A stretch of 64,000 bases of DNA from a virus, in IMG/VR virus record IMGVR_UViG_3300030061_003170. One strand, written 5' to 3'. The first letter of the stretch is position 1. Each line of letters opens with the position of its first letter. The translations under genes and the position numbers were made by a program. Under the pieces are notes generated by a model. It was not told the origin of the DNA and did no database searches. It saw nothing but the letters and a program-made list of their open reading frames with translations. Positions 2,543-30,613 of this stretch are shown here, piece after piece.

Positions 2543-3604
2543 TTACTTCTTGGTGGCTAACACTTCCATCATGAACTCCTTGACAGTCGGCAGGTCAGGA
2601 CCGAGATCAACTTTGTGGATACCACCGGCATTCTCGATAGCCTTTTCGCCACTGGTGATGTGCTTCCACAGGTTCATCGCTAACTCAGATGGCAACTGGA
2701 CCATGTACGTGGCAATGTTGACACGTTGGTTCTCGTCTAGTTCGGCATCGAAGCACTTTTGCTGTACCATACTCTCGATAAGAGCGTTGTGGTCGTTGAT
2801 CTTGAAGTCAACAACAAGGTCGTGCTTGCCGTCATCAATGATGTCCTCTGGGGTAACGATGGCCTTGTAGTTATCAACAAAGTCACGGAGAGCAACGGCA
2901 GCCTCGAAGCCGACAAAAGAACTGGCAACGTGGTACAGAGTTGGGGTCGCTTCGATTTTGCCGAGACCAGCGAGGGCCTTGTCCAATCGCTCCCAAGAAC
3001 GACGAGACGGATAGACCTTGTTAGGCTCGTAATCATCGGTGTGCTCAAGGTGCTGGTGATTGTTGTTGATGAAGTCCCAAACAACTTGCGATACACGACC
3101 ATCAGCCCAAGAGAGCCAGTCCTCGATAGTAGGGGACACGTCGAACACGGTGTAACGGTCTAGTTCAGCAGGGTCCATTTCACCAACCTGATACTGAGCA
3201 CCGTGTTCACCACCATTGACGGCAGCGAAGATAAGGGTGTCGGGGTGCAGTCTCTGACCAGCAATCTTGCGACTGTCGCACAACTCGAAGATACCTTGAC
3301 GTACCTCCATCGTAGCACGGTCAACCTCATCCAAGAACAGGATGACCGCTTCGTTGCAAGCGGTGGCAAGCCATTCTGGTGGTAGCCAAGTAGTGACATT
3401 GCCCTCGACCTTGGGCAGACCAAGCAAGTCACCCTCAGTCATCTGAGAAGCACGTCGTTCTACGACAGGGAGATCACGCTCTTCAGCATACTGATAGACG
3501 ATGGTAGACTTACCGATACCGTGACGGCCACGGATAAGTACAGGGTAGCGTGCATCAGTGATGACAGGCAGGACATTGAGCATAGTTTTGAAGTCGATTG
3601 ACAT
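2543..3604 (-). CDS. MoxR-like/AAA_5 ATPase
   Basis: Walker A GRHGIGKS, Walker B LFLDEVDR, FAAVN, DPAELDR, PSRRSW motifs. Confidence 0.9.
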   Translation of the reverse strand: MSIDFKTMLNVLPVITDARYPVLIRGRHGIGKSTIVYQYAEERDLPVVERRASQMTEGDLLGLPKVEGNVTTWLPPEWLATACNEAVILFLDEVDRATMEVRQGIFELCDSRKIAGQRLHPDTLIFAAVNGGEHGAQYQVGEMDPAELDRYTVFDVSPTIEDWLSWADGRVSQVVWDFINNNHQHLEHTDDYEPNKVYPSRRSWERLDKALAGLGKIEATPTLYHVASSFVGFEAAVALRDFVDNYKAIVTPEDIIDDGKHDLVVDFKINDHNALIESMVQQKCFDAELDENQRVNIATYMVQLPSELAMNLWKHITSGEKAIENAGGIHKVDLGPDLPTVKEFMMEVLATKK

Positions 3605-3859: not shown

Positions 3860-3887
3860 AATGTATCACGGTATTTAGATTTGTCAA
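3860..3887 (-). promoter_or_regulatory. early promoter module
   Basis: TTGACA-16-TACATT. Confidence 0.75.
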
Positions 3888-3912: not shown

Positions 3913-4110
3913 TTATGCTATGACTTCGAGCGAACGGATGTTTACCCAAGTGCAAAGTGCTCCAGTTGGGCGGTTGAGCCATCTTACCTTTGCTTGCACA
4001 CAGGTTGTATCGACAACTAGGGCTAAGTATTGTCTATCAGTAAATCCATTCCTATCCACCCAACCGTATCTTACAAGATCCCCGACCCTTATCAAGTCGC
4101 CTATTTGCAT
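3913..4110 (-). CDS. GDLV-family KOW/SH3-like cassette protein
   Basis: MQIGDLIRVGDLV...LEVIA. Confidence 0.85.
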   Translation of the reverse strand: MQIGDLIRVGDLVRYGWVDRNGFTDRQYLALVVDTTCVQAKVRWLNRPTGALCTWVNIRSLEVIA

Positions 4111-4277
4111 ACTACCTCCAAGTCACGATTATCAGCCCCCCATCGCTGGCCAGTATCAATATAAGAGATCAGCCAATCGAATGAAGTTCCAATGGTTGTA
4201 ACATAATCCTTAGCAAGGATAATCGCTATTCTTCTTTTGCTGATTGAGCGATCAATAACTAAATCACCTACTTGCAT
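4101..4277 (-). CDS. GDLV-family cassette protein (58 aa, not in ORF track)
   Basis: MQVGDLVIDRSISKRRIAIILAKDYVTTIGTSFDWLISYIDTGQRWGADNRDLEVVCK. Confidence 0.85.
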   Translation of the reverse strand: MQVGDLVIDRSISKRRIAIILAKDYVTTIGTSFDWLISYIDTGQRWGADNRDLEVVCK

Positions 4278-4447
4278 ATCTTCTCCAGTTGTTCAGGGTA
4301 TTTCCAGTTTGAACAATCTCCAACTAACCAACGAACTTTCAAGACAAGCGCGAGGTGGTCATTGAAACTTGTCTCTGTAATAATCCCGATGACAAGGGGT
4401 GTATTGTCACGATAGGTTATGTTTCTTACTAAATCGCCTACTTGCAT
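4268..4447 (-). CDS. GDLV-family cassette protein (59 aa, not in ORF track)
   Basis: MQVGDLVRNITYRDNTPLVIGIITE...VRWLVG...LEKICK. Confidence 0.85.
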   Translation of the reverse strand: MQVGDLVRNITYRDNTPLVIGIITETSFNDHLALVLKVRWLVGDCSNWKYPEQLEKICK

Positions 4448-4475
4448 TGTGTCTCCTTGTTTGTGTTACATAGGT

Positions 4476-4503
4476 AGTGTATCACGGTAGTAGGATTTGT
4501 CAA
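4476..4503 (-). promoter_or_regulatory. early promoter module
   Basis: TTGACA-16-TACACT. Confidence 0.7.
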
Positions 4504-4529
4504 GAAAAAAGATAAAGTTTTTTTTGAGA

Positions 4530-4700
4530 TTATGCTACGACTTCGATTGCTTCGAAGTATACCCAACTTGAAAAAGTATCACCAGACGGAGAAGTGAACC
4601 AGTGAACATTAGCCTGAACACAGGTCGTATCAAGTACAAGGCCCAAGCGAGCAACAAAGTTAGGGTCAGGTCTGAGTGTTACTAAATCGCCTACTTGCAT
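4530..4700 (-). CDS. GDLV-family cassette protein
   Basis: start moved to MQVGDLVTLRPD in the junction repeat; ends IEVVA. Confidence 0.85.
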   Translation of the reverse strand: MQVGDLVTLRPDPNFVARLGLVLDTTCVQANVHWFTSPSGDTFSSWVYFEAIEVVA

Positions 4701-4906
4701 ACTAACTCCAACTCGTGCCATACGAACCATTCAAGGTTCTCTCCATCTATGTGTATCTTGAACAGTGTGCAGGGGGTCGGCTCTATGTGGTCATCCTTGG
4801 CCTCAATGATAATACCTATCTTGCCCTTGTAATGCTTTGCGTTGCTGGGGCCGAGAACGTAGGGCAAACGCTCTTCGTTGAACTTTACTAATGAACCTAC
4901 ATTCAT
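4691..4906 (-). CDS. GDLV-family cassette protein
   Basis: MNVGSLVKF...GKIGIII...LELVCK. Confidence 0.85.
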   Translation of the reverse strand: MNVGSLVKFNEERLPYVLGPSNAKHYKGKIGIIIEAKDDHIEPTPCTLFKIHIDGENLEWFVWHELELVCK

Positions 4907-5079
4907 ACTACCTCCAAATAACGGCTATCTACGCCCAGTATGTCTCCGGTCACGAAGTAGAAAACACCCCAGTCAAACGGGGTTCCAATGTCTGTATAGA
5001 ACCCATTAGTGACAATCATCCCGATTGCTTGATTGTTATTACCTAATGAACGGTCAATAACTAAATCTCCTACTTGCAT
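4903..5079 (-). CDS. GDLV-family cassette protein (58 aa, not in ORF track)
   Basis: MQVGDLVIDRSLGNNNQAIGMIV...IGTPFDWGVFYFVTG...LEVV. Confidence 0.85.
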   Translation of the reverse strand: MQVGDLVIDRSLGNNNQAIGMIVTNGFYTDIGTPFDWGVFYFVTGDILGVDSRYLEVV

Positions 5080-5255
5080 ATTACCTCCAGATCACCTGTG
5101 TGTTCCCATGCCCTCAGTGATGCCACACCCAGTCCGTTAGGACAGAACCAATGGACCAAAACGCATCCGTTGTCTCTTTGTCCTTGTTCTAGGATAATAC
5201 CAATGCTGTACCCTCTCCCGCTAGGGCTTATCTGTACTAAATCACCTACTTGCAT
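5070..5255 (-). CDS. GDLV-family cassette protein
   Basis: MQVGDLVQI...IGIIL...VHWF...LEVICK. Confidence 0.85.
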   Translation of the reverse strand: MQVGDLVQISPSGRGYSIGIILEQGQRDNGCVLVHWFCPNGLGVASLRAWEHTGDLEVICK

Positions 5256-5422
5256 ATTACCTCCAAGTCATTGGGTTGTTTCCAGTGTTTCATTCCGTTG
5301 CTGTACTGGACAAGGATGGGTGCGCCACCGACACGAGTGTTATCAATCACTATTCCAACCCAGTCTATCTTCATACCATCTGGGTATTCCTTCCTGTATC
5401 TTACCAGACTTCCTACTTCCAT
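5246..5422 (-). CDS. GDLV-family cassette protein (58 aa, not in ORF track)
   Basis: MEVGSLVRYRKEYPDGMKIDWVGIVID...LEVICK. Confidence 0.85.
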   Translation of the reverse strand: MEVGSLVRYRKEYPDGMKIDWVGIVIDNTRVGGAPILVQYSNGMKHWKQPNDLEVICK

Positions 5423-5453
5423 TATTGTCTCCGTTCTTGTTGGTTACATAGGT

Positions 5454-5481
5454 AATGTATCACGGTAGGAGTATTTGTCAA
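5454..5481 (-). promoter_or_regulatory. early promoter module
   Basis: TTGACA-16-TACATT; about 55 bp near-identical to 9654-9708. Confidence 0.75.
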
Positions 5482-5482
5482 G

Positions 5483-5716
5483 TCAAAAGGCAAAGTTTTT
5501 TTCTTTTTTTTCAATGACCTCGAAGTCTTCGGCTTCCTCTTCCCATTGTTCTCCGTTGCACCACTGAATGAGATACTGACGGATGCCGATGAGAGAACAA
5601 TCACTTCCGTCATCCTCGGCAGGGTCGCGATAGTCCATCACAATGCCGATAAGTTTAGTGTTAGGGGTCCAGACCTCTCTTAGTTTTACTAGGTCGCCAA
5701 TCTCAATGTTATCCAT
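5483..5716 (-). CDS. GDLV-family cassette protein
   Basis: MDNIEIGDLVKL...IGIVM...IQWCNG...FEVIE. Confidence 0.85.
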   Translation of the reverse strand: MDNIEIGDLVKLREVWTPNTKLIGIVMDYRDPAEDDGSDCSLIGIRQYLIQWCNGEQWEEEAEDFEVIEKKEKNFAF

Positions 5717-5897
5717 CAATCACCTCCACATTCTTTTGTCGAACAAAACCCATTGAATGGTCGTTCCAGTAGATTTTGCACATTTGATACCTCTTTTCTG
5801 CCCAGTTCTGACCGAGCGTTTCAGTCCACATTTTTACTACGACACCTATCATTTCGGGACGGCCAGCCCTGTATTTTACTAAATCTCCTACTTGCAT
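5709..5897 (-). CDS. GDLV-family cassette protein
   Basis: MQVGDLVKYR...IGVVV...VEVIDG. Confidence 0.85.
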   Translation of the reverse strand: MQVGDLVKYRAGRPEMIGVVVKMWTETLGQNWAEKRYQMCKIYWNDHSMGFVRQKNVEVIDG

Positions 5898-6106
5898 AAT
5901 AACTCCAGCCATTCAGGTTCGTAGTGACATTCATTGCCGTTAGCCCATTGCACATTGACATACTCGTGGTCGCGGACACCATTGGGATGGTTCACTTGTC
6001 GCCCCCATTTCTTGGTCACGATACCGATGAGTTTTAGACCATCCTTGCCCTTGATGTACCCAGCCGATGAGGGCAGCATCACTAAATCTCCGACTTCTAT
6101 CTTCAT
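5888..6106 (-). CDS. GDLV-family cassette protein
   Basis: MKIEVGDLVML...IGIVT...VQWANG...LELLCK. Confidence 0.85.
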   Translation of the reverse strand: MKIEVGDLVMLPSSAGYIKGKDGLKLIGIVTKKWGRQVNHPNGVRDHEYVNVQWANGNECHYEPEWLELLCK

Positions 6107-6111
6107 TGTGT

Positions 6112-6378
6112 CTATCTCCATGTTTCACCTGTGCTAATGTTGGTTAGTGGAAAACCACCAGAGTTATGTTGTCTCCAACCACCGACGTGCTTAGGGCTGA
6201 GATAGATGTGTCTCGTATGGAAGTCGCTCACGTCTGGGTGTGGGGTAGGTATGTACAAGACCACGATAGCAAAGTCGGGCATCTGTGCCGTCAGTATCTC
6301 TTGCACAATACCAAACTCTTCCTCTGGTCCAAATGTGCATAGGTCAGAGACAGTAAATGGGATTGAATAATCAGTCAT
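6112..6378 (-). CDS. hypothetical protein, possibly a divergent GDLV-family member
   Basis: FTVSDLC...FGIVQEI; SD GGAG; first gene after promoter 6406-6433. Confidence 0.7.
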   Translation of the reverse strand: MTDYSIPFTVSDLCTFGPEEEFGIVQEILTAQMPDFAIVVLYIPTPHPDVSDFHTRHIYLSPKHVGGWRQHNSGGFPLTNISTGETWR

Positions 6379-6405
6379 TGTTTCTCCGTTGTTGGTTACA
6401 TTCAT

Positions 6406-6433
6406 AATGTATCACGGTTGAAAGATTTGTCAA
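6406..6433 (-). promoter_or_regulatory. early promoter module
   Basis: TTGACA-16-TACATT. Confidence 0.75.
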
Positions 6434-6441
6434 GGATTTTC

Positions 6442-6651
6442 TCAAACTTTTTTTATCTCGTACCTCTTCATCCTGAGTGTATCACCACTGGAGTACAATC
6501 CGACAATATTGAACCAGCGAATGTTTATTGGGTATTTCACCTCTGGTCGTTCACTGATTTCAACGATAACCCCCATCTTCCCACGAACTAAGTCGTTGCC
6601 TTTGTTCTTGTTGCCGGCTGCCGATAGTGTTACTAAATCGCCTACTTGCAT
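6442..6651 (-). CDS. GDLV-family cassette protein
   Basis: MQVGDLVTL...GKMGVIVEI...IRWF. Confidence 0.85.
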   Translation of the reverse strand: MQVGDLVTLSAAGNKNKGNDLVRGKMGVIVEISERPEVKYPINIRWFNIVGLYSSGDTLRMKRYEIKKV

Positions 6652-6794
6652 ATTACCTCCACGTTTCGCACCAGTACCCAAAATACAACACCATCACTCC
6701 AGCGCACCCCAACTCTATTGCCCAGCAGGCCAGTCTCTGTGATGATACCTATTCTGTTCATAATCTTATCCCTGACCAGTGATCCTATTTCCAT
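6642..6794 (-). CDS. GDLV-family cassette protein (50 aa, not in ORF track)
   Basis: MEIGSLVRDKIMNRIGIITETG...VRWSDG...VEVICK. Confidence 0.85.
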   Translation of the reverse strand: MEIGSLVRDKIMNRIGIITETGLLGNRVGVRWSDGVVFWVLVRNVEVICK

Positions 6795-6803
6795 GCAGAC
6801 CTC

Positions 6804-7562
6804 CTACTTTACGAGTTTTATGTCACTTTCACAGACCCAAGTCTCATCAGATTGACCTGCACTAAATGCCACAATCTTGTACAGACGGGTGCTGCCTTTA
6901 GATTTGTGCATCTGGCGGCAGGCAAACGTAGCGTTTAGAACCTCGGCAACTAGGGCTGTCTTGTAAGGCTTTGCAACTTTACGGTCTTGATAGCCGTGCA
7001 GACCGTTACGAAACTCATCGTGACTGTAACTGATAATGCGCCAAGACGAGAATGTGGGAGCAGTTCCTCGTATGGACACTAGGTCACCTACCCCATACAG
7101 GGGGGTAGAGTTGAAGCAGGCCCACAGTTTATCACGCAGTTTGCTACCCTCCAATCTCTCAAGGCGCGGCATGTGGAGATCAATGTCATGACCTTTACGA
7201 TACATCCCTAACTGCCGTCGTAACTCCACCGCGCAGTTTCTGTACCATTGAATGTGGCCCTCGTTTGGGACACTACGTCGCGACACATAGAACAAGGTCA
7301 AAAAGTCAATCCATTTGAGAAACTGCTCGTCTTTAGCATCCCACAATGCTTGCCATTCGTTACGCTTTCTTACCTGCTCCTCGTACATTTCAACAGGGAA
7401 TGCTTCGATTTGCTCCTGACACCATTCAATCTGCCGAGAACTGATTTGTCCTTTCTCAAGGTACTGGTCAGCGATGCTTCGTAAAACGTGCGCCTTACTT
7501 GCTTTGCCAAGGCCCTCGCAAATGTCAGCAGTTTTTCTGATTTGTCCGATTGTGATAGTCAT
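6804..7562 (-). CDS. 252-aa protein with helical N-terminus and C-terminal GDLV-family domain
   Basis: internal YGVGDLVSIRG...ALVAEV...YKIV...WVCESDIKLVK. Confidence 0.8.
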   Translation of the reverse strand: MTITIGQIRKTADICEGLGKASKAHVLRSIADQYLEKGQISSRQIEWCQEQIEAFPVEMYEEQVRKRNEWQALWDAKDEQFLKWIDFLTLFYVSRRSVPNEGHIQWYRNCAVELRRQLGMYRKGHDIDLHMPRLERLEGSKLRDKLWACFNSTPLYGVGDLVSIRGTAPTFSSWRIISYSHDEFRNGLHGYQDRKVAKPYKTALVAEVLNATFACRQMHKSKGSTRLYKIVAFSAGQSDETWVCESDIKLVK

Positions 7563-7592
7563 TTGACCTCCATCTTTCTTGGTTGTGTTTGT

Positions 7593-7620
7593 AATGTATC
7601 ACGCTGCTGACATTTGTCAA
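7593..7620 (-). promoter_or_regulatory. early promoter module
   Basis: TTGACA-16-TACATT. Confidence 0.75.
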
Positions 7621-7636
7621 GGAAAAAGATAAAGTT

Positions 7637-7858
7637 TTAGAGAAAATCTTTGTGGAATGCGAGCAGAACGCTGTCAGGATCACGGAATGACCACATCCCT
7701 AACACGATTGTGTCGCCTGTGCGGTTGCACTTTATCTCAAAGTTATCGCCAATGACGACATTGTAGGTGAAGTTATCAGGACAATGATCGTAGATGTGAT
7801 TGAGTATGTCTATGGCTTCCTCAGTGGTTGCTCGGTATGGTTTTAGTTTACTAGTCAT
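7637..7858 (-). CDS. hypothetical protein
   Basis: start MTSKLK with GGAG SD. Confidence 0.7.
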   Translation of the reverse strand: MTSKLKPYRATTEEAIDILNHIYDHCPDNFTYNVVIGDNFEIKCNRTGDTIVLGMWSFRDPDSVLLAFHKDFL

Positions 7859-8084
7859 TTGTACTCTCCTCGTTGTTAGTGGTTTCAGGGCGACCAAACC
7901 CTATTGGTGTTCTATCTTCTTTGTTTGGTTTTTTTGATGGTGGTGGACCAGCCAAGGCTCCAAGCATCGCTGCTGGTATTCCCATCGGTGCTGGTTGATT
8001 GAGGGTAACCATCATACCCATTACTTTCTTTAGCAGGTCATCACTTAGATTGATGCTAATGTTGATTTCGTTATTTGCTTCCAT
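7851..8084 (-). CDS. hypothetical protein
   Basis: start MEANNE with GGAGG SD; ends in a PIGF motif. Confidence 0.7.
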   Translation of the reverse strand: MEANNEINISINLSDDLLKKVMGMMVTLNQPAPMGIPAAMLGALAGPPPSKKPNKEDRTPIGFGRPETTNNEESTND

Positions 8085-8316
8085 TGTTTCCTCCGTCCTC
8101 TGGTTGTTTGGGCATAGTACAGAGACCATTCTGTACCATACTTGCTGCTGCTCGGCCATAGAAACCCTGTAGTTTCCAAGCATGCTCAGTGTCGATTAGC
8201 CACTGCCACGTTGCAATGTACTTGTCCTCCTCTACTTCCACCTCACCCTCAGCAATCTGCACTGCTTCAGTTAGTGTGAGGTTGTAAGGGTTTTTGATTT
8301 TCTTTTTCTTACCCAT
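8071..8316 (-). CDS. small hypothetical phage protein
   Basis: WQWLIDT..AWKLQGFYGRAA motif, recalled from other small phage proteins. Confidence 0.75.
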   Translation of the reverse strand: MGKKKKIKNPYNLTLTEAVQIAEGEVEVEEDKYIATWQWLIDTEHAWKLQGFYGRAAASMVQNGLCTMPKQPEDGGNNGSK

Positions 8317-8346
8317 CGTATCTCCTGTGTTCGGGGGGGTACTAGT

Positions 8347-8374
8347 AATGTATCACGTCTCAAAGATTTGTCAA
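8347..8374 (-). promoter_or_regulatory. early promoter module
   Basis: TTGACA-16-TACATT; flank tttgtcaagtattttaggaaactttt is duplicated at 8661. Confidence 0.75.
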
Positions 8375-8379
8375 GTATT

Positions 8380-8619
8380 TTAGGAAACTTTTCTTAGCCA
8401 ACTGTAATGTATGTCGCGTGTCTCACCATTGAGCAGAATGACCACATCATTATCGCGACAGTTATCAGGTGCTTCCACAACATACCCGACCACAAACATC
8501 GGCATATCAGAGCCAAAAAACAAAGTAGTCTTTACGATTACAAGATCGCCTGTTTGGGGCACTATCCCGTAGTCAAATCTGTAAGGTGTTGCGTTTTCGT
8601 AGTGAGCGAATGAAGCCAT
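8380..8619 (-). CDS. GDLV-family protein with N-terminal extension
   Basis: PQTGDLVIV...VGYVVE...WLRKVS. Confidence 0.8.
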   Translation of the reverse strand: MASFAHYENATPYRFDYGIVPQTGDLVIVKTTLFFGSDMPMFVVGYVVEAPDNCRDNDVVILLNGETRDIHYSWLRKVS

Positions 8620-8640
8620 GTTTTCCTCCTTGGTGTTAGT

Positions 8641-8668
8641 AATGTAACACGCTGCTTATGTTTGTCAA
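8641..8668 (-). promoter_or_regulatory. early promoter module
   Basis: TTGACA-16-TACATT. Confidence 0.75.
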
Positions 8669-8673
8669 GTATT

Positions 8674-8826
8674 TTAGGAAACTTTTATCAAAGACCTCGG
8701 AGAACACAGACACACACCACCATCAACAAACTCTACCACGTAAAATGGATAGTTGTCTTTTGCTAACCTTGTTATGACACCAAATCTCCTATCCTCGGAG
8801 TGCATCACTAAATCACCTATTTTCAT
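8674..8826 (-). CDS. GDLV-family cassette protein (50 aa, not in ORF track)
   Basis: MKIGDLVMHSEDRRFGVITR...VEFVDG...LIKVS. Confidence 0.85.
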   Translation of the reverse strand: MKIGDLVMHSEDRRFGVITRLAKDNYPFYVVEFVDGGVCLCSPRSLIKVS

Positions 8827-8984
8827 AATACATCCAGTTCTCTCTCATCAAAAACTCTCTTTTCCCCATTTATCATAAGGGTTACCAACCTAGGGTACAT
8901 AGGATAATCCCAACCCAACACTGTACCGACATGAACTTTAGATCCAGAGAGACCCTTTACTATAACTAAATCACCTATTTTCAT
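8823..8984 (-). CDS. GDLV-family cassette protein
   Basis: MKIGDLVIVK...VGTVL...LDVL. Confidence 0.85.
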   Translation of the reverse strand: MKIGDLVIVKGLSGSKVHVGTVLGWDYPMYPRLVTLMINGEKRVFDERELDVL

Positions 8985-9175
8985 AATACATCCAAAACAC
9001 GGAATGGAACCCAACCGGCTCTCATTTTTTGAAACCAGTGGACCCTAATGATTGGTGCTTTCTTGCCCCGTACCTCCAGCACCACACCAAGAGATTTTCC
9101 TTTTATCGGTTCCCCGGTGACTGTACAGAAAGTTCTGGATCGTCTATTGTATTTTACCAAATCACCTATTTTCAT
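8981..9175 (-). CDS. GDLV-family cassette protein
   Basis: MKIGDLVKY...LGVVLEV...VHWF...LDVL. Confidence 0.85.
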   Translation of the reverse strand: MKIGDLVKYNRRSRTFCTVTGEPIKGKSLGVVLEVRGKKAPIIRVHWFQKMRAGWVPFRVLDVL

Positions 9176-9336
9176 AATACCTCCAGTAAAGCAGCAACCC
9201 ACCATTCACGCTCACCAGCAAACTGGCCACCTGTCCATTGGACATAGATCATGTCATCATCTTTTCCATTACCAATCTGCACAACTAGACCAATCTCTCG
9301 CTTACAGGGTAGGCACACTATATCTCCTATCTGCAT
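9172..9336 (-). CDS. GDLV-family cassette protein (54 aa, not in ORF track)
   Basis: MQIGDIVCLPCKREIGLVVQIG...VQWTGG...LEVL. Confidence 0.85.
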   Translation of the reverse strand: MQIGDIVCLPCKREIGLVVQIGNGKDDDMIYVQWTGGQFAGEREWWVAALLEVL

Positions 9337-9482
9337 AATAACTCCACTTCATCACCATAGATTAGTTCATATTCGCCATTACCAAGAAATATGGTGGCCA
9401 TATCAGAGATCAGACCAAACACTTCTGTGACAACACCGATGCGGCCATCGTATGTGTATCGTACTAAATCGCCTACTTTCAT
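9327..9482 (-). CDS. GDLV-family cassette protein (51 aa, not in ORF track)
   Basis: MKVGDLVRYTYDGRIGVVTEV...VELLCR. Confidence 0.85.
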   Translation of the reverse strand: MKVGDLVRYTYDGRIGVVTEVFGLISDMATIFLGNGEYELIYGDEVELLCR

Positions 9483-9649
9483 GCCAACACCTTACACTGG
9501 ATGGGGGTCAATATAATCTCTGCACCGTTTGCAAGTATTACTGTGTGTTGTGCTACAAACCCCGGTCTCTTTTCAATCTTCACGATAGTACCGAACTTCC
9601 CATTGCAACGTCCGTGGAATAGAACCCTTATCAAATCGCCTATTTGCAT
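9479..9649 (-). CDS. GDLV-family cassette protein (56 aa, not in ORF track)
   Basis: MQIGDLIRVLFHGRCNGKFGTIVKIE, the most classical KOW-like member. Confidence 0.85.
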   Translation of the reverse strand: MQIGDLIRVLFHGRCNGKFGTIVKIEKRPGFVAQHTVILANGAEIILTPIQCKVLA

Positions 9650-9679
9650 TGTGTCTCCGTTCTTATTGGTTACATAGGT

Positions 9680-9707
9680 AATGTATCACGGTGGAAGTAT
9701 TTGTCAA
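9680..9707 (-). promoter_or_regulatory. early promoter module
   Basis: TTGACA-16-TACATT. Confidence 0.75.
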
Positions 9708-9725
9708 GGAAAAAGACAAACTTTT

Positions 9726-9911
9726 TTATATTTTTCTCAAATCCTCAGCATCATAAAAGTATTGAAACCCAAACCATCGGGGCCAATACACTTTGACTGA
9801 CTTCGTTGTTCTACTGATTTCCACGACGATACCCAAGGAACGCTCGCCTTTCGGTTCATCAATGTAAATGTGTGGGTCGCAATGCGTAACTAGATCGCCA
9901 ACTTCGAACAT
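9726..9911 (-). CDS. GDLV-family cassette protein
   Basis: MFEVGDLVT...LGIVVEI...VYW...LRKI. Confidence 0.85.
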   Translation of the reverse strand: MFEVGDLVTHCDPHIYIDEPKGERSLGIVVEISRTTKSVKVYWPRWFGFQYFYDAEDLRKI

Positions 9912-10072
9912 TATAGTTTCTCCAAACTGCGATAATCAACATAGAACTTTCGAGAATGGTCAGCAGACTTGACATAATAACTGTCCTCGTAAATGTCGCA
10001 CTGGCCAGTAATGATACCAATGAGCCAGCCATAATGCTTTGATTGCCATCTAACTAAATCACCTACTTGCAT
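9911..10072 (-). CDS. GDLV-family cassette protein
   Basis: MQVGDLVRW...IGIITG...LEKL. Confidence 0.85.
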   Translation of the reverse strand: MQVGDLVRWQSKHYGWLIGIITGQCDIYEDSYYVKSADHSRKFYVDYRSLEKL

Positions 10073-10242
10073 ACTAACTCCAGATCGTAATAAGGGAACC
10101 AGTCCCATTGTTTCTCAGTGTTTGCGAAAAAAACAAGAAAGGAGTTAGGCAACTGCTTTTTGTTGCGACACTTAGTAATGATCCCAACTTGGTTTGTTCT
10201 CGTGAATAAGTTTGTGACTTTCACTAAGTCTCCTACTTGCAT
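10063..10242 (-). CDS. GDLV-family cassette protein (59 aa, not in ORF track)
   Basis: MQVGDLVKVTNLFTRTNQVGIITK...LELVCK. Confidence 0.85.
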   Translation of the reverse strand: MQVGDLVKVTNLFTRTNQVGIITKCRNKKQLPNSFLVFFANTEKQWDWFPYYDLELVCK

Positions 10243-10272
10243 CTTGTTCTCCTTTCTTCGTCTTGTGTAAGT

Positions 10273-10300
10273 AATGTATCACGAACAAAAGATTTGTCAA
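10273..10300 (-). promoter_or_regulatory. early promoter module
   Basis: TTGACA-16-TACATT. Confidence 0.75.
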
Positions 10301-10319
10301 GGAAAAAAGATAAAGTTTT

Positions 10320-10487
10320 TTAGAGTGTCTCACACCAATCCTCAGGGACAGTGTAAATCTTCCCATCCTGTGGGCAGTAGACTTGCAAGAAGAATGGGCT
10401 AACGTGCATAACCAAAGCGATGAAAGAGAAGTCTGGTGCTTCATCCGGGGTGTCAACATGCACTTTGATAAGGTCACCTGCTGTCAT
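10320..10487 (-). CDS. GDLV-family cassette protein (55 aa, not in ORF track)
   Basis: MTAGDLIKVHVD...IALVMHV...WCETL. Confidence 0.8.
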   Translation of the reverse strand: MTAGDLIKVHVDTPDEAPDFSFIALVMHVSPFFLQVYCPQDGKIYTVPEDWCETL

Positions 10488-10665
10488 TGATCACTTCTAA
10501 GTCAACAGATGGCCATCGGTTCCTTGTACCATCACCCTTTGCAACCTCAACAATGTAAACTTTATCGTAGATACCGGGACATAGTCTACTTTCAGTCCGC
10601 TGAAGTGACATAATATGTCCAAACCAGTGCTGTCGTTTGTGTCTTACTAGGTCACCGACTTTCAT
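10474..10665 (-). CDS. GDLV-family cassette protein
   Basis: MKVGDLVRHK...FGHIM...LEVINDSR. Confidence 0.85.
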   Translation of the reverse strand: MKVGDLVRHKRQHWFGHIMSLQRTESRLCPGIYDKVYIVEVAKGDGTRNRWPSVDLEVINDSR

Positions 10666-11584
10666 TGCTCTGCTCCGGATCTTCGTAACGTGCAGCCCAT
10701 CCATCAATCAGATCAGACAGACCGTTCTTTTTTATCCACTCAAGGTTTCTTTTCTTAGACAGCCAATCAAAGGCATCTTGTCTCGCCTGTTGTACCCACC
10801 CCTCATCTAGGGGAGTAGGAGACGGAGAGATGACCTGTGAAATGTATGGCTTTCGAGATGGAGTGTACCTTACATCTGCATCTACTTTAGGTAATACACC
10901 CTTATGTAGTTCAATCTGGACCTTGCCACGGAAGCCGTCTGGTGTGATGAATGATACTTCAATCGGTGTCCTAAGTTCCCAAGACAGTGCTCTATTGTTG
11001 GCCAAAGCCCAGTCCGATGTTACACTGACCTTTTCCCAGTTTACGTCAGTTACCGTGCAAATACCATAAGAGTCTTGCACATATTCTCCGCTTGAATAAT
11101 GATACTTATGTACTTTAGGTTCGATCAAAGCCCCAACATCAATACCATGCTCAGAAACAAGCAGGTCATAGACATACTTTCGGATGGCTTGGTTCGCTCT
11201 GTTTGCTTTCTCACGAAACACTAACAACTCTGCACAGGTTCTACGAGTGTGTCCGGTTTCTCCGCAAAACCCACACTTGCGTTCAGCCTTGGCCCTACGG
11301 GGAGTACTCTCTCTTTCTTGTGCTCTCTTTTGTTTGTGACTAGCAATCATAGTTGCCTGATACCACTCACCCCAAAACCTTGGGTACTTGAACGGGTGCA
11401 TCCTGTGATAGGGCGATTGGGCAGTATGAACCCAGCAATCAGGATCTTTGAGAGGAACTTCCATTCTCTGCCAAGATGCCCAGTCCGGAGCAACGTGTGG
11501 GCACTTTGTGACATTATGCCCCGGCTGTCTACAATAACTGCAAGAGTTAGGTGAGCGTTTATCCTTTTGATCGTAAATCTGCAT
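10652..11584 (-). CDS. double CCHC zinc-knuckle protein
   Basis: CSYCRQPGHNVTKC and CGFCGETGHTRRTC. Confidence 0.8.
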   Translation of the reverse strand: MQIYDQKDKRSPNSCSYCRQPGHNVTKCPHVAPDWASWQRMEVPLKDPDCWVHTAQSPYHRMHPFKYPRFWGEWYQATMIASHKQKRAQERESTPRRAKAERKCGFCGETGHTRRTCAELLVFREKANRANQAIRKYVYDLLVSEHGIDVGALIEPKVHKYHYSSGEYVQDSYGICTVTDVNWEKVSVTSDWALANNRALSWELRTPIEVSFITPDGFRGKVQIELHKGVLPKVDADVRYTPSRKPYISQVISPSPTPLDEGWVQQARQDAFDWLSKKRNLEWIKKNGLSDLIDGWAARYEDPEQSNESR

Positions 11585-11623
11585 TATGCCCTCCAAGGCT
11601 ATGCGGTTGTTGGTTACATAGAT

Positions 11624-11651
11624 AATGTATCACGGTAGTAGGATTTGTCAA
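11624..11651 (-). promoter_or_regulatory. early promoter module
   Basis: TTGACA-16-TACATT; spacer identical to the 4476-4503 copy. Confidence 0.75.
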
Positions 11652-11664
11652 GTAAAAAGGGAAA

Positions 11665-11964
11665 CTATTTTTTCTTTTCTTTGAACATAATGTCTAGTAG
11701 TCCGTATGGAACGTTGTAGTAGATACATCGCCAGCCCATAAATCTAACTGGTAGATCAGCACCCTCTTTGTATGATGATGGTACAATCTTCCTATAGCCG
11801 GCTGGACCCTCTGGTAATGTGTCCGATCCCTCCGCATAAACACACAGTGCCCCATCTTTTTGCTTTATCTCAAACGCGCCATCGGTCTGGTCGAGTATGT
11901 GTTTTGTCATTGCACGATGCGCTTCTTCCCAAGGTTCTTTTTTACTGAATGCTAGATTGGCCAT
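11665..11964 (-). CDS. hypothetical protein
   Basis: GGAGG SD, 99 aa. Confidence 0.75.
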   Translation of the reverse strand: MANLAFSKKEPWEEAHRAMTKHILDQTDGAFEIKQKDGALCVYAEGSDTLPEGPAGYRKIVPSSYKEGADLPVRFMGWRCIYYNVPYGLLDIMFKEKKK

Positions 11965-11977
11965 TGGCCCTCCTGTG

Positions 11978-12163
11978 TTAGTCCCTGTATCCAGGGGAGT
12001 AAGGTATTAGTTCATAAGCATATTCCAAGACATGCTCGTCTACTTTAGCGTAAAACACGAGATAGATAAGGCCATCAAAGTCATTATCATCAACCATAAC
12101 TTCGGTAACTAAACCAATGCCTAGGTCAGGATCAATAACAAGGTCTCCTATCTCAAACTCCAC
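11978..12163 (-). CDS. GDLV-family cassette protein
   Basis: MEFEIGDLVIDPDLGIGLVTEV. Confidence 0.85.
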   Translation of the reverse strand: MEFEIGDLVIDPDLGIGLVTEVMVDDNDFDGLIYLVFYAKVDEHVLEYAYELIPYSPGYRD

Positions 12164-12164
12164 A

Positions 12165-12392
12165 TCAGCCCTCCGCGATTAGAACTCCGCTCTCGCGTGC
12201 GCCCTCTATCAAAAGCAGGATTGCGTGCCAAGCACTCTCTTGTTGGTCCTTTGGTAGTGTCTCAATCATCTGCATACTAGTAACTAGTAAGTGGGTGAGA
12301 GTAAATCTTTCGCCCATCTCTTTCATTTCTTTCTCAATACCTGTAAGTCTTGTCTCGTTCAACACTTTGTACTCCTTTTTTATTTGTGTCAA
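12165..12392 (-). CDS. hypothetical protein (start uncertain)
   Basis: ORF directly after the promoter-like element at 12397-12424. Confidence 0.65.
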   Translation of the reverse strand: MTQIKKEYKVLNETRLTGIEKEMKEMGERFTLTHLLVTSMQMIETLPKDQQESAWHAILLLIEGARESGVLIAEG

Positions 12393-12420
12393 TAATATTG
12401 TAACACGTTTGAAAAACTTG

Positions 12421-12591
12421 TCAAGCGATAACTGTTGTTTTCCAATACCTCAAATCAAAATCAGCGACCTTACCACCATCATACATAAACTTACAGAAAA
12501 GATCAGAGTGATAGGTTGAACCTAAGTAAACGCCAATCATCCGTAGTTGTTCGCATCTGGAAACTATCTGTACTAAATCACCTACCTGCAT
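12421..12591 (-). CDS. GDLV-family cassette protein
   Basis: MQVGDLVQIV...IGVYL. Confidence 0.85.
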   Translation of the reverse strand: MQVGDLVQIVSRCEQLRMIGVYLGSTYHSDLFCKFMYDGGKVADFDLRYWKTTVIA

Positions 12592-12752
12592 ATTACCTCG
12601 CAATACTGTTTGGACCACCAACGAGTATCATTCTCGTTTGGTATCCAAACCTCAATGTGGTGAGATACTGATGGACCATCGGGCGAAACATAAATAACTA
12701 TTCCTATCGTACCGTTCGATTTGTGAAACACTAAAGAGCCAACACTAACCAT
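12582..12752 (-). CDS. GDLV-family cassette protein (56 aa, not in ORF track)
   Basis: MVSVGSLVFHKSNGTIGIVIYV...EVW...CEVICR. Confidence 0.85.
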   Translation of the reverse strand: MVSVGSLVFHKSNGTIGIVIYVSPDGPSVSHHIEVWIPNENDTRWWSKQYCEVICR

Positions 12753-12949
12753 CACAAACGCTCCAGTTCTTCTTGTAGTGCTTCTAAAAGTTGTCCGTCT
12801 GAGGCTGTAACTTCATAAAACATAGCACCGTCCTCTAAATAGATTGCGCCTGTTACATGGCCAATACCCTCTCGCCAAGACCAGAAAGAACCAGAGCCAT
12901 CATAACCCATTAGTATCCTGTACTTCACCAGATCGCCTACACTAAACAC
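12752..12949 (-). CDS. GDLV-family cassette protein
   Basis: MFSVGDLVKY...IGHVT...LERL. Confidence 0.85.
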   Translation of the reverse strand: MFSVGDLVKYRILMGYDGSGSFWSWREGIGHVTGAIYLEDGAMFYEVTASDGQLLEALQEELERL

Positions 12950-12958
12950 TTTTGCTCC

Positions 12959-13135
12959 CTATAGCACCTCAAGCACAACGTCTATGAATACTCTACAAAA
13001 CCCTTTCTTGAACCAAAAGACATCTGCTGTCCTGAATGGGTCAGAATATGTAACTACCATGCCGACACCCCAATCCTGTACAAACTCTGGCTCGTAAGTT
13101 TCACTACATAGGATTACAAGGTCGCCTACATTCAA
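12959..13135 (-). CDS. GDLV-family cassette protein (58 aa, TTG start, not in ORF track)
   Basis: MNVGDLVILC...VGMVV...VFWF...LEVL; promoter at 13154-13181. Confidence 0.8.
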   Translation of the reverse strand: MNVGDLVILCSETYEPEFVQDWGVGMVVTYSDPFRTADVFWFKKGFCRVFIDVVLEVL

Positions 13136-13443
13136 TGGCTGCTCCTTGTTGATAATGTAACACGTTCATCATCATTGTCAAGGTGTTTTCTAGTCTTTTT
13201 TTTATTATTCATATAAACATCGTATGGCACGAGTACAAACATAGCATCCCAGCCAGTAACTATATCCTTGCCGTGAGGCATCATAACAATGTAAAGCGGG
13301 TATCCACCGGGATCATAATCATCCTTTACCGCTTCTACTACAATACCAACCTCATCGTGCGTACCATCAATAACATCCATCCAAACAACTAAATCACCCG
13401 GGCTGTATGTGTATCCACGGTGGTCGACTCGAGGTTTTCTCAT
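13132..13443 (-). CDS. GDLV-family protein with extensions
   Basis: YSPGDLVVW...VGIVVE. Confidence 0.75.
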   Translation of the reverse strand: MRKPRVDHRGYTYSPGDLVVWMDVIDGTHDEVGIVVEAVKDDYDPGGYPLYIVMMPHGKDIVTGWDAMFVLVPYDVYMNNKKKTRKHLDNDDERVTLSTRSSH

Positions 13444-18119: not shown

Positions 18120-19688
18120 TCAGTCCGAAACAATAGCATGCGAAGTTGTCAGTAAAGTTCCTGCTGCTGATGCAGCATTCTTCAAAGCCGAGGTTGTAAC
18201 TTTACAAGGGTCGATAATACCTGACTCGTACATATTGGTTATTTTTCTTCTCAAGAAGTCATAGCCATTATCACCTGTCTCATCTTTAATCTTTGAGACA
18301 ATAATATCAGCAGACTCTCCAGCATTTGTTGCCATTTGTCTGATTGGTGCTTGGCATGCCATGAGAATAACTTGTGCCCCAATTGATTGTTCATCATTAT
18401 CTGTCTCAACGAACAAGTCGGTTGTCGCACGTAACAGGGCCACGCCCCCACCCGGGAGGGTACCTAGGTCCCTTGCGGCCCTAACGGCCTCCAGTGCATC
18501 ATCAATACGATGCTTCTTCTCAATCATTTCGATTTCTGTGGCTGCTCCGACTTTGATGACTGCGACTCCCGAAGCAAGTCGAGTGATACGTTCTTGAAGT
18601 CGTTCACACTCAGATAGGTTGTCAGTCTGTTGTATCTCGTTCTTAATCGCCTCAATGCGCGTATCGATCTCCTCACCATTACCTTTTCCTCCAATGATTG
18701 TTGTCCATCCTTTCATGATCCTAATGTTTTTACATCCACCAAATTGAGGTAACTCAATCTCTTTCAAGAGCAGACCATCCTCCCTGGTGATAAATGTTGC
18801 ACCAATTGTGGCGCAAAGGTCTCTAAGGATATTTCTTCTTTCTTCTCCGTACTTTGGAGACTTAACGGCACAGATTTTCATTGTTCCACGTACAGCGTTG
18901 GCAATCAAAGCAGCAAGTGCTTGTCCTTCAAAGTCATTACCAATAATGAGAAGCGGACGGTTGTCTCTTGCTGCAATCTCTAGAGTTGGCATGATCTGAT
19001 CTATTTGTTCAATCTTTTCATCAGTAACAAGAACCAGTGGGTTGTCGTAATCAACAGTCCCAGTCCTCTCGTTGTTGATAAACTTGCTAGAAACATACCC
19101 AGAATCAAATCTAAAGCCCTCAATCAAGTCAAGAGAGGTCTCCATGCTTCGTGCTTCTTCCACAAGAACAGAGCCATCCTTGCCTGCCTTATCAACTGCT
19201 GTTGCAATCAGTGTGCCAATCGCTTCATCATTATTTGCTGAGATTGTGGCAATGTGCTTAATATCATCAACTGTCTGAATTGGTCGCGACATGTCCGTCA
19301 GACGTTCGCAAACTGCTTCAACCGCCTTGTCCATACCTCTCTTCATTTCCACAGGGGAAACACCAGATACGAGGTATTGCTGTGCAGTCTTAAGGATGCT
19401 GCGCGCAAGTACAGTTGCGGTGGTTGTTCCGTCACCAGCAACGCTGACTGATTGCTCTGCCGCTTGCTTGATGACTTGCGCACCAAGGTTCATGAACGGA
19501 TCTTCGCAGGTAACAAACTTTGCTACGGTCACTCCGTCTTTTGTAATTACAGGAACGTCTTGCCCCTTGTGATATAATGCTACGTTACGCCCACGGGGGC
19601 CTAGGGTAGTAGCAACGTTATCTGCTAAAAGATCAACGCCCTCAATGATTTTCGCATTAAGGGGTTGACCGTTCTTAAAATGTTTCAC
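18120..19688 (-). CDS. groEL: phage-encoded chaperonin GroEL
   Basis: TLGPRGRNV, ITKDGVTVA, AGDGTTTATVLA, GGGVAL, GIIDP. Confidence 0.97.
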   Translation of the reverse strand: MKHFKNGQPLNAKIIEGVDLLADNVATTLGPRGRNVALYHKGQDVPVITKDGVTVAKFVTCEDPFMNLGAQVIKQAAEQSVSVAGDGTTTATVLARSILKTAQQYLVSGVSPVEMKRGMDKAVEAVCERLTDMSRPIQTVDDIKHIATISANNDEAIGTLIATAVDKAGKDGSVLVEEARSMETSLDLIEGFRFDSGYVSSKFINNERTGTVDYDNPLVLVTDEKIEQIDQIMPTLEIAARDNRPLLIIGNDFEGQALAALIANAVRGTMKICAVKSPKYGEERRNILRDLCATIGATFITREDGLLLKEIELPQFGGCKNIRIMKGWTTIIGGKGNGEEIDTRIEAIKNEIQQTDNLSECERLQERITRLASGVAVIKVGAATEIEMIEKKHRIDDALEAVRAARDLGTLPGGGVALLRATTDLFVETDNDEQSIGAQVILMACQAPIRQMATNAGESADIIVSKIKDETGDNGYDFLRRKITNMYESGIIDPCKVTTSALKNAASAAGTLLTTSHAIVSD

Positions 19689-27700: not shown

Positions 27701-28238
27701 CGGACATAGCGATGACACCCTCGCTGTTTTCACGGAGGAGGTCAAAGTCGATGCGTGGCTTACGATAGAAGTAATCGCCTGAATAAGAGGTTGATACCAT
27801 CTTGAAGATGTTGTTCAAGCCAGTCTGGTTCATTGCAACAAGAACAAGGTGTCTCTTGCGGTTGATGTCGTGCTTGGTGGCAGACTTTGACTCCGCTTCG
27901 TTCTCAACCGTGGTTCCAGAACGTGCGTTATCAATCTGCTTAGACTTAACCTTGTCGGCTTTGTACTCCTCTAGTTTTGATCTCCATCCATCGAGAGACT
28001 CGATGAAGTATGCTTCGACACCAAAGATAGGCTTGAAGTCCTTACCTTGCTTTTTCATACGCTTAGCGTGAAGAACCTGATAGGCAAAGCCATTCATATT
28101 CCCGTGGTCGGTCAAGGCCAGAGCCTCTGACCCGTTCTTGTAAGCAAAGTCCATGTGATCTGCTGGGTAGCCAAAACCATCAAATGGTGAGCCGACACCA
28201 GAGTGAGCGTGCAATCCTACAAAATTAATCTTTTTCAT
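24786..28238 (-). CDS. dnaE: DNA polymerase III alpha subunit (PHP plus catalytic domain)
   Basis: LHAHS, ALTDHG, GRGSAAGSLVAY, YPDIDFD, HAGGVVI, IKFDILGL, YGFNKSHA. Confidence 0.97.
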   Translation of the reverse strand: MKKINFVGLHAHSGVGSPFDGFGYPADHMDFAYKNGSEALALTDHGNMNGFAYQVLHAKRMKKQGKDFKPIFGVEAYFIESLDGWRSKLEEYKADKVKSKQIDNARSGTTVENEAESKSATKHDINRKRHLVLVAMNQTGLNNIFKMVSTSYSGDYFYRKPRIDFDLLRENSEGVIAMSACLGGVYAGCYWENREQGEEAVLSCMREMTTKMMDIFGDRWYGELQWNGISEQHELNQYIIKMHEEFGIPLVSTCDSHYPNPTAWQDRELYKRIGWLGKGAPEWLDNNIPDHIDEMEYELYPKNGNQMWEDYLKYSKQCGVKYNDDLILQSLEETHKIAFDRIEDFIPDNTVRLPNFVVPAGHTADNYLSQLAFEGLLGILERRGTKDAEGVLELYNNRLNHELSVISDRGFSRYFLTMKAIVDKTDEVQLAGPGRGSAAGSLVAYALGITQVDPIKYGLLFSRFLRADATDYPDIDFDVSDPMTLKEKLIEEWGSNTVVPISNFNTLQLRSLIKDISKFYDIPFTEVNKVTAVMMREATGPAKKRRGMKAGMYTPNFEEVCEFSPSLQAFFRQYPRVKSHVEGLMGQIRSTSRHAGGVVIGEQLDQFMPLIASKGVRQTPWSEGQNVRQLEPMGFIKFDILGLATLRMMEECIRRILERHHGVENPTFADIKEYYDKNLHPDVINLDDQEVYENIFHEGKWVGIFQFAERGAQKFAKKAKPKSIVDISAITSIFRPGPLSAGVHNDYVAAIRDPLSVRYENEIIEEYTRETNGFLIFQEQIALLAHHLGKDLGLDDANLLRKLLTKKGLDPAKEAKKEEIYNKFVLGCVEKGMTEDMADELWQKFEYFSGYGFNKSHAVSYSIVSYQCAWLATYYNAEWCCAFLDKEPETRKEKAINIVKAQGYNVKPLNINTSGRNWTVLDGTTLVAPLTTIKGLGDAAIDEIIEKRPFHSPEDLLFDKGVVARKLNKKSLDALCRSNAMTDLIDERFSGAKHFWSAVVVDKPKTKKKLNENIEKYLPEGDFSKNEFIEHIQNLTGIYPMNLVVPDELLKRFEKKGLPPISEYVESGEEFCWCIPINVNSKKTKNKKWYHVVTVIDSNSVTTQVRCWNIGNDYEDQPQVNVPYFLKPRYSEDWGFSTSGRIDENWARLA

Positions 28239-30604: not shown

Positions 30605-30613
30605 TTGCTCTCC

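Follow-up and report, generated by a model that had tools for sequence, protein, structure and literature searches.

What kind of system is formed by a tandem run of some thirty small genes in the genome of an uncultured phage, and how such a run could gain, lose and reorder its genes, are the questions raised by a locus at positions 3913-13443 (minus strand) of a 64,000-nt stretch of DNA, IMG/VR record IMGVR_UViG_3300030061_003170, which is referred to below as the window. The source is an uncultured marine myovirus of ~190 kb. An earlier note had described the locus as a repeat-delimited array of about 31 hypervariable KOW/SH3-like genes with a common scaffold. Our analysis suggests that the array is probably a set of early, translationally coupled, host-directed binding modules, which are shuffled by homologous recombination at standardised connectors, and the best reading is that of a coding-junction variant of the shuffling of promoter-early stem-loop (PeSL) cassettes in T4-type phages.

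The list of open reading frames (ORFs) and a motif scan showed a chain of small minus-strand ORFs opening with M-[QKE]-[VI]-G-[DS]-L-V, and the array was found to contain 29 family genes of 50-78 amino acids (aa) and two diverged members (13132-13443 and 8380-8619), in which the scaffold aligns behind N-terminal extensions, for a total of ~31 in ~9.5 kb (Table 1). When a profile of the 29 members was run against 1090 six-frame ORFs of the window, matches were confined to minus-strand ORFs within 3913-13135, plus one at 30422-30613 that was outside the training set (E 5e-8), and none was on the plus strand. Because the E-values of a trained profile are partly circular, the search was repeated with leave-one-out profiles, which recovered 28 of the 29 members at E <= 0.002 and 26 of them at E < 1e-4, the sole failure being the borderline member 10320-10487 (E 0.92). 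A start codon is present in every member, and in nearly all of them GGAG lies 4-10 nt upstream. The claim of about 31 tandem minus-strand ORFs with intact starts is therefore confirmed, as is an array of family genes, except that seven genes that are not members are interspersed and that the repeats are of two kinds rather than one, namely a ~30-nt coding junction and a promoter repeat. Identity between paralogues is ~25%, and the variation in length lies in the first two inter-strand loops.

The junction repeat combines the conserved start of the genes (ATG CAA GTA GGN GAT TTA GT) with a Shine-Dalgarno sequence in the last codons (LEV) of the upstream gene. In the main type, the bases for L-E-V-I-C-K-stop double as the GGAGGT Shine-Dalgarno sequence and as ATG-CAA-GTA-G of the next gene, with an overlap of 10 nt, ATGCAAGTAG, in which codons 3-4 of the next gene contain the upstream TAG stop; the second type, L-[ED]-V-L-stop, has a 4-nt overlap, ATGA. 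Operon-final members hold only a looser hydrophobic-x-hydrophobic strand, such as IEVVA, YEIKKV, LIKVS, LRKI or CETL. The C-terminal LEV is partly a ribosome-binding site, because the Shine-Dalgarno sequence of the next gene falls there, and the ICK tail is, as judged from the overlapping frames, a by-product of the MQV of the next gene. Thus, this part of the proposed scaffold, the LEV and the ICK tail, is imposed by the Shine-Dalgarno sequence and start of the next gene rather than by the fold.

It was also found that the junction is a standard connector, whose synonymous sites the overlapping frame holds fixed, with one "dialect" per lineage. Codon 3 is GTA, which supplies the TAG stop, in 14 of 15 cases of Val, compared with a background of 21%, and there is an excess of TTA and GTA at codons 6 and 7. 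In relatives (534 distinct members), GGT accounts for 51% of the Gly codons where the stop is TAG, which leaves the third base free, and for 91% where it is TGA within GGTGA. The dialect of the window and of two close relatives, L001 and L002 (ATPase 92% and 80% identical to that of the window, respectively), is ATGCAAGTAG, and that of most other relatives is [AG]TGAAAGTCGGTGA with a 14-nt overlap; across lineages, the overlaps are 14, 4 and 10 nt. Because of the sites fixed by the overlap and the single dialect of each lineage, any gene fits behind any other without a break in the frame. Furthermore, all five promoter-proximal members of the window retain the TAG though no gene overlaps them, as expected if genes change places. 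ATGA and longer stop/start overlaps in translational coupling have been reviewed (PMC12548453), and the array shares with such cases both the overlaps and the Shine-Dalgarno sequence within the upstream gene, which suggests that the genes of one operon would be made together. Unlike translational coupling in general, the array reuses one connector at most of its junctions, and this connector co-varies with the conserved termini of the family.

The second kind of repeat bears out the earlier proposal of host-type promoters. There are 13 near-identical repeats of the sigma-70 type, TTGACA-N16-TACATT extended by TG, with an A/T tract upstream. Matches to the pattern TTGACA-N13-TG-N-TACAYT in the window number 15, compared with 0.11 expected, and 13 of these lie at 2.4-13.2 kb, without exception on the minus strand. 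The repeat families that contain the promoter (D1, D2 and D7) span 37-89 nt, and the promoters head operons of 1-6 genes. Such promoters would allow the array to be transcribed at the start of infection by unmodified host RNA polymerase. Terminator-like hairpins in the window number 8, compared with 7.4 expected, and none is at a promoter repeat. As a separate observation, the promoter repeat at 13154-13181 lies within the gene 13132-13443, and the same bases thus encode both protein and promoter.

Related loci were collected with the ATPase gene adjoining the array as an anchor; IMG/VR holds 230 related stretches, for the most part from marine metagenomes, and five relatives (184-201 kb) are rated 100% complete. 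The arrays of L001 and L002 are of the same size as that of the window and differ from it in content. An orthologue is missing in one or both relatives for 10-12 of the 40 genes compared, and L001 and L002 each have family members that are absent from the window. The order differs as well: the L002 orthologue of 9172-9336 is directly followed by that of 9726-9911, the orthologues of 4101-4277, 4691-4906, 8674-8826, 6442-6651 and 5888-6121 have other neighbours, and two promoter-to-promoter units are located elsewhere, 8380-8619 in both relatives and 10652-11596 in L001. In base-level alignments, identity begins at the Shine-Dalgarno sequence and stops either in the promoter repeat or no more than 10-20 nt into the gene that follows. 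When high-scoring segment pairs of at least 140 nt were counted, and ends were taken to be at a repeat if they were no more than 25 nt from a gene start or 30 nt from a promoter repeat, 40 of 48 ends fell at a junction or promoter repeat, compared with 27% of positions by chance (binomial p ~8e-16), an enrichment that is partly expected under any model, because genes are the units of similarity; 14 of the 48 were at promoter repeats. Synonymous divergence (dS) forms a mosaic among neighbouring genes, from 0.05 (4101-4277 compared with L002) to >2, with ~1.1 for the ATPase, and such widely differing values point to recent exchange of single cassettes. Finally, at ~7985-8025 (plus strand) of L002, a relic junction, ATGCAAATAGG, supplies the stop of the preceding gene and runs straight into the A/T tract of a promoter repeat, an arrangement that resembles a scar left by recombination between repeats of the two kinds.

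It might be argued that the junction is conserved only for the N-terminus of the protein and for the Shine-Dalgarno sequence and start, that turnover results from illegitimate recombination and differential loss under selection, and that the junction has no role as a recombination substrate. Residues G4, D5, L6 and V7 do belong to the core of the fold, operon-final genes still hold the weaker form of the LEV strand, much of the synonymous conservation is explained by the overlapping frames, and surviving breakpoints necessarily lie between genes anyway. However, a random break would almost never yield two intact genes because of the overlaps of 4-14 nt, and despite these overlaps, precise single-gene joins are many among only three genomes. 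The unused TAG of promoter-proximal genes, a dialect that is uniform within a lineage although paralogues are so dissimilar, and the direct fusion of the L002 relic to a promoter repeat also speak against this explanation, which we consider unlikely.

In the mechanism that we favour, homologous recombination at the 30-90-nt junction and promoter repeats would move the genes, leading to deletion and duplication within one genome and to swaps between co-infecting relatives, and every product would be in frame because the junction is read in two frames. The catalyst of the exchange is probably the RecA of the phage itself: the window encodes a RecA-like recombinase (PF00154, E 8e-39), and RecA was found in all five complete relatives. 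The likeness of the layout to CRISPR arrays and integrons, as drawn in the earlier note, could point instead to a dedicated system for cassettes, akin to integrons, CRISPR or diversity-generating retroelements and with a specific enzyme acting at the repeat, which would have the same repeat-unique-repeat layout and breakpoints at the repeat. As a mechanism, this analogy was not supported. The five complete relatives contain no tyrosine integrase (PF00589), serine recombinase/resolvase or reverse transcriptase (PF00078), while the control searches were positive (in 14 of 14 genomes for the integrase search), and there was no tyrosine integrase among the 20 large window ORFs scanned, a subset of those in the window. 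A scan for inverted repeats and hairpins found none at junctions or promoter repeats. The integron pattern of an IntI gene adjacent to the array and attC-type inverted repeats is lacking here, as is the combination of reverse transcriptase and template/variable repeat pair of a diversity-generating retroelement. Judged as a CRISPR array, the locus has a "repeat" that is coding, and its "spacers" are ORFs of 150-230 nt subject to purifying selection, although no search was aimed at cas genes. Purifying selection on orthologues also speaks against a dedicated cassette-diversifying system, and this explanation is largely refuted, with scarcely any probability left to it.

A closer precedent is offered by the PeSL cassettes in the hyperplastic regions of T4-type phages, in which repeats of ~100 bp with a strong sigma-70-like early promoter lie between small non-essential early genes, and for which homologous recombination between the repeats has been proposed as the mechanism (Arbiol et al. 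2010, PMC2839356; Comeau et al. 2014, PMC4122927). The array likewise has repeated strong early promoters amid small early genes, with the promoter within the repeat and with indels and replacements between relatives at the repeats, but there is no stem-loop terminator joined to the promoter. It also differs in that a second and commoner crossover site lies in coding sequence, at the overlap of stop, Shine-Dalgarno sequence and start; in that most of its cassettes come from one protein family instead of being unrelated ORFans; and in that the phage is not T4-like in replication, having a Pol III alpha. The array would be an early hyperplastic region holding a very diverse family of 50-80-aa SH3/KOW/Tudor-like barrels. 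No description of such arrays was found in the literature.

The assignment of the fold comes from AlphaFold2 (AF2) models of two members, for which the family itself was supplied as the alignment. The model of 10063-10242 is a five-strand barrel with a predicted local distance difference test score (pLDDT) of 90, and that of 8380-8619 has an identical strand order with a pLDDT of 73 (~85 within the barrel). In both, the order is E-E-E-E-(HHH)-E, which agrees with the definition of an SH3-fold small beta-barrel: a closed barrel of ~50-60 residues made of five antiparallel strands, the last two of which are separated by a short 3-10 turn. The best PDB matches were PetP, NdhS, PsaE, R67 DHFR, the KOW domains of eS4, Spt5 and NusG, and Tudor (template modelling scores of 0.7-0.83, Z of 6-7.4), along with uL24, a PWWP-ssDNA complex and OapB with RNA, and the matches in BFVD and ESM Atlas included many uncharacterised phage proteins of 50-75 aa. 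At the level of sequence, a Pfam scan of 30 members reached no threshold (the best was KOWx_SPT5, E 0.009, in one member, and PF00467 was unlisted), 2 of the 30 matched PHROGs v4 at E 0.003-0.008 and to unannotated phrogs only, and no functional name was obtained from Pfam, PHROGs, ESM Atlas or a search of 5.8 billion proteins. Profile similarity was marginal to MIB1/HERC2, Cul7-CPH repeats, DUF1918 repeats and eS4. The KOW/SH3-like label is therefore right for the modelled fold, whereas by sequence the proteins do not fall into the KOW family. What they have in common with the named SH3-fold families (KOW PF00467, Tudor, CPH/Cul7, MIB_HERC2, DUF1918, PetP, NdhS, PsaE and R67 DHFR) is the five-strand barrel, a first strand of the GDxV type and a last strand preceded by a 3-10 turn; unlike those, they are single-domain, stand-alone phage proteins with 10-30 copies per genome. 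The common fold of the two models, the differences in cassette content and order between relatives, and the breakpoints at repeats rather than at random all came out in favour of the earlier note, which had named different folds, identical cassette order and content, and random breakpoints as the outcomes that would tell against it.

The same matches raise the question of whether the proteins are nucleic-acid binders of the KOW, Sm or Sso7d kind, which tune phage or host RNA or DNA, instead of protein-binding effectors. The top matches include the ribosomal and Spt5/NusG KOW domains and the complexes with ssDNA and RNA mentioned above, the isoelectric point is >8 in 8 of the 29 members, and a conserved gene for a CCHC zinc-knuckle protein lies within the array. 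However, 13 of the 29 members are acidic (net charges range from -13 to +10), the match to the KOW family is below the Pfam threshold throughout, and the extreme diversity in sequence suits many partners better than one class of nucleic acid. This explanation thus seems to us decidedly unlikely.

The ratio of nonsynonymous to synonymous substitutions (dN/dS) between orthologues was 0.01-0.62 and was below 1 for all 15 members tested (17 comparisons), and this purifying selection indicates that there is no ongoing hypermutation. Orthologues differ at 28% of sites in loops and at 16% in strands; loops evolve faster than strands in most proteins. Positive selection was considered for this reason and rejected, since the ratio is below 1 everywhere even though loops change faster. 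In addition, the 594 members from 71 distinct loci form 465 clusters at 65% identity, and no locus among the 71 contains a pair that is at least 65% identical. The word "hypervariable" in the earlier note, taken as ongoing diversification, is therefore not supported. A profile search of a library of 1.8 billion proteins gave 1993 clusters (50% identity) at E < 1e-3, mostly of 50-70 aa, with a few two-unit fusions among them, and the complete relatives carry 10-30 copies each, nearly all within ~20 kb around the ATPase gene.

If the array were ORFan padding, neutral or selfish and of no use to the phage, the great differences in content among relatives would be easily explained, and the early genes of SPO1 are often dispensable in the laboratory (PMC6873191). 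On the other side, dN/dS is well below 1 in each member tested, the starts and Shine-Dalgarno sites are all intact, the copy number is maintained in every complete relative, and the family was found in 72 of the 80 loci fetched. Padding is thus a very improbable explanation, and the substitution pattern indicates that the array genes are functional and stable.

As for what the proteins do, the paralogues may be stable binding modules, each for a different macromolecule of the host or phage, that jointly serve host takeover or counter-defence; this is the least certain step of the scheme. A role as early host-directed binding modules is suggested by analogy with what SH3, Tudor and KOW domains usually do and with SPO1's host-takeover module. 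That module has 26 small early genes (Stewart et al. 1998, cited in PMC6873191), and it resembles the array as a cluster of ~10-12 kb of mostly small genes in short operons with strong host-type promoters and ribosome-binding sites. Its genes, unlike those of the array, do not share one fold as paralogues and lack a standard overlapping connector, and several have shown targets.

Several points weigh against our interpretation. The role as binders depends on the analogy with SH3, Tudor, KOW and SPO1, because no family of known function matches, and the alignments behind the AF2 models consisted of the family itself. Edges at gene borders are partly expected, as only gene-preserving rearrangements survive, and the base-level comparison is limited to two relatives. 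The preference for particular codons at positions 6 and 7 could instead have arisen because an unstructured translation start is favoured by selection.

A further-reaching proposal, which we put forward as possible but doubtful, is that the junction is a selected, lineage-specific and frame-safe "plug" for the exchange of single cassettes by co-infecting phages, and that an ocean-wide pool of thousands of SH3-like binders forms a fast-adapting anti-defence or takeover repertoire. If true, the phages would have the counterpart of a cassette library at the level of proteins, without a dedicated recombinase. The chief reservoir of unknown genes in large phages is the early region, the fast turnover of which is only partly understood. 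The array offers a concrete device, in that a two-frame connector keeps the genes of a family interchangeable, and recombination there would explain the gain, loss and reordering of single genes. The family is very large and unnamed (~2000 clusters at 50% identity, in a widespread marine phage clade), and because it is unnamed and its fold is typical of binding modules, it is a good place to seek host-takeover and counter-defence proteins.

Table 1. Coordinates of the array genes, promoter repeats and other features of the window.
Position	Strand	Feature	Evidence or remark
13154-13181	-	Promoter repeat, inside 3' coding end of 13132-13443	TTGACA-N16-TACATT with TG
12397-12424	-	Promoter repeat	pattern match
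11624-11651	-	Promoter repeat	pattern match
10273-10300	-	Promoter repeat	pattern match
9680-9707	-	Promoter repeat	pattern match
8641-8668	-	Promoter repeat	pattern match
8347-8374	-	Promoter repeat	pattern match
7593-7620	-	Promoter repeat	pattern match
6406-6433	-	Promoter repeat	pattern match
5454-5481	-	Promoter repeat	pattern match
4476-4503	-	Promoter repeat	pattern match
3860-3887	-	Promoter repeat, downstream end of array	pattern match
5233-5265	-	Representative junction repeat: LEVICK-stop TAG, GGAGGT, next start and seven codons; 15 copies in register	repeat families D3, D4, D8
13132-13443	-	Diverged member, 103 aa, N- and C-terminal extensions	profile E 0.003; scaffold alignment
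12959-13135	-	Member, 58 aa, first gene behind promoter 13154-13181	profile; leave-one-out E 2e-7
12752-12949	-	Member, 65 aa	profile; leave-one-out E 5e-5
12582-12755	-	Member, 57 aa	profile; leave-one-out E 1e-6
12421-12591	-	Member, 56 aa, operon-final	profile; leave-one-out E 0.0017
12165-12392		Interspersed non-member	
11978-12163	-	Member, 61 aa, 95% identity to L001 and L002 orthologues	profile; leave-one-out E 1e-4
11665-11964		Interspersed non-member	
10652-11596	-	Interspersed non-member, 314 aa, two retroviral-type CCHC zinc knuckles	clade-conserved
10474-10665	-	Member, 63 aa	profile; leave-one-out E 2e-8
10320-10487	-	Borderline member, 55 aa, N-terminus MTAGDLIKV	trained profile; leave-one-out E 0.92
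10063-10242	-	Member, 59 aa, modelled barrel pLDDT 90	profile; leave-one-out E 6.5e-13; AF2
9911-10072	-	Member, 53 aa	profile; leave-one-out
9726-9911	-	Member, 61 aa	profile; orthologue map
9479-9649	-	Member, 56 aa, promoter-proximal	profile; leave-one-out
9327-9482	-	Member, 51 aa	profile; leave-one-out; orthologue map
9172-9336	-	Member, 54 aa	profile; orthologue map; base-level alignment
8981-9175	-	Member, 64 aa, ATGA (4-nt) junction type	profile; junction anatomy
8823-8984	-	Member, 53 aa, ATGA junction type	profile; leave-one-out E 2e-4
8674-8826	-	Member, 50 aa; upstream neighbours differ in L001 and L002	profile; base-level alignment
8380-8619	-	Diverged member, 79 aa, N-terminal extension, own promoter	profile E 0.015; AF2 barrel pLDDT 73
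8071-8316		Interspersed non-member	
7637-7897		Interspersed non-member	
6804-7562	-	Interspersed non-member, 252 aa	87-91% identical in L001 and L002
6642-6794	-	Member, 50 aa	profile; leave-one-out
6442-6651	-	Member, 69 aa	profile; leave-one-out
6112-6405		Interspersed non-member	
5888-6121	-	Member, 77 aa	profile; leave-one-out
5709-5897	-	Member, 62 aa	profile; leave-one-out
5483-5719	-	Member, 78 aa	profile; leave-one-out
5246-5422	-	Member, 58 aa, promoter-proximal	profile; leave-one-out
5070-5255	-	Member, 61 aa	profile; leave-one-out
4903-5079	-	Member, 58 aa	profile; leave-one-out
4691-4906	-	Member, 71 aa, long first loop; orthologues 92-93% identical; L002 neighbours differ	profile
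4530-4700	-	Member, 56 aa	profile; leave-one-out
4268-4447	-	Member, 59 aa, promoter-proximal	profile; leave-one-out
4101-4277	-	Member, 58 aa; L002 copy 95% identical (dS 0.05), other neighbours	orthologue map, dS
3913-4110	-	Member, 65 aa, last of array	profile; leave-one-out
30422-30613	-	Outlying member beyond array	profile E 5e-8, outside training set
1201-2418 and 2543-3604	-	MoxR-type AAA ATPase and DUF2201 protein pair	directly downstream of array
18120-19688	-	Phage GroEL	
24786-28238	-	Pol III alpha-type replicase with PHP domain	
44140-45255	-	RecA-like recombinase	

Coding in the window is nearly all on the minus strand, and the phage genes include those for tail sheath, GroEL, ribonucleotide reductase, a DnaB-type helicase, a Pol III alpha-type polymerase and RecA, as well as a MoxR-type ATPase with its VWA/metallopeptidase partner. 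For a sheathed marine phage of ~190 kb without a cultured relative, GroEL, Pol III alpha and RecA make an unusual replication set. A megablast search with the array and a tblastn search with one member gave no match among 50,697 GenBank phages; for GroEL, sheath and ATPase, cultured relatives are distant (<45% identity). Family profiles had no hit in the first 50 kb of the coliphage RB49 (best E 0.2). A search of the window for tRNA genes found none and thus gave no clue to the host. The DUF2201 protein next to the array combines a VWA-like part with a putative metallopeptidase, and its PHROGs label, "HNH endonuclease", is not supported by its Pfam match.

Some of the other observations concern the family outside its usual setting. 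Among the replication-region genes, away from the array, the clear member at 30422-30613 is accompanied by a weak match at 31197-31427 (E 0.02, minus strand). Three metagenomic proteins of 125-132 aa (P0007, P0008 and P0012) consist of two family units, the second of which begins with MQVGDL or similar. Fusion by frameshift or read-through at the junction was considered and rejected, as no slippery site was seen and the two-unit proteins look like ordinary in-frame fusions. The 252-aa protein encoded at 6804-7562 has a helical N-terminal part of 160 aa without assignment and a C-terminal part with GVGDLV and a barrel-like pattern, and may represent the fusion of a barrel with another domain. 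The CCHC zinc-knuckle gene was found at ~23-58% identity in some 35 loci, and 7 of these hold a second, more distant copy.

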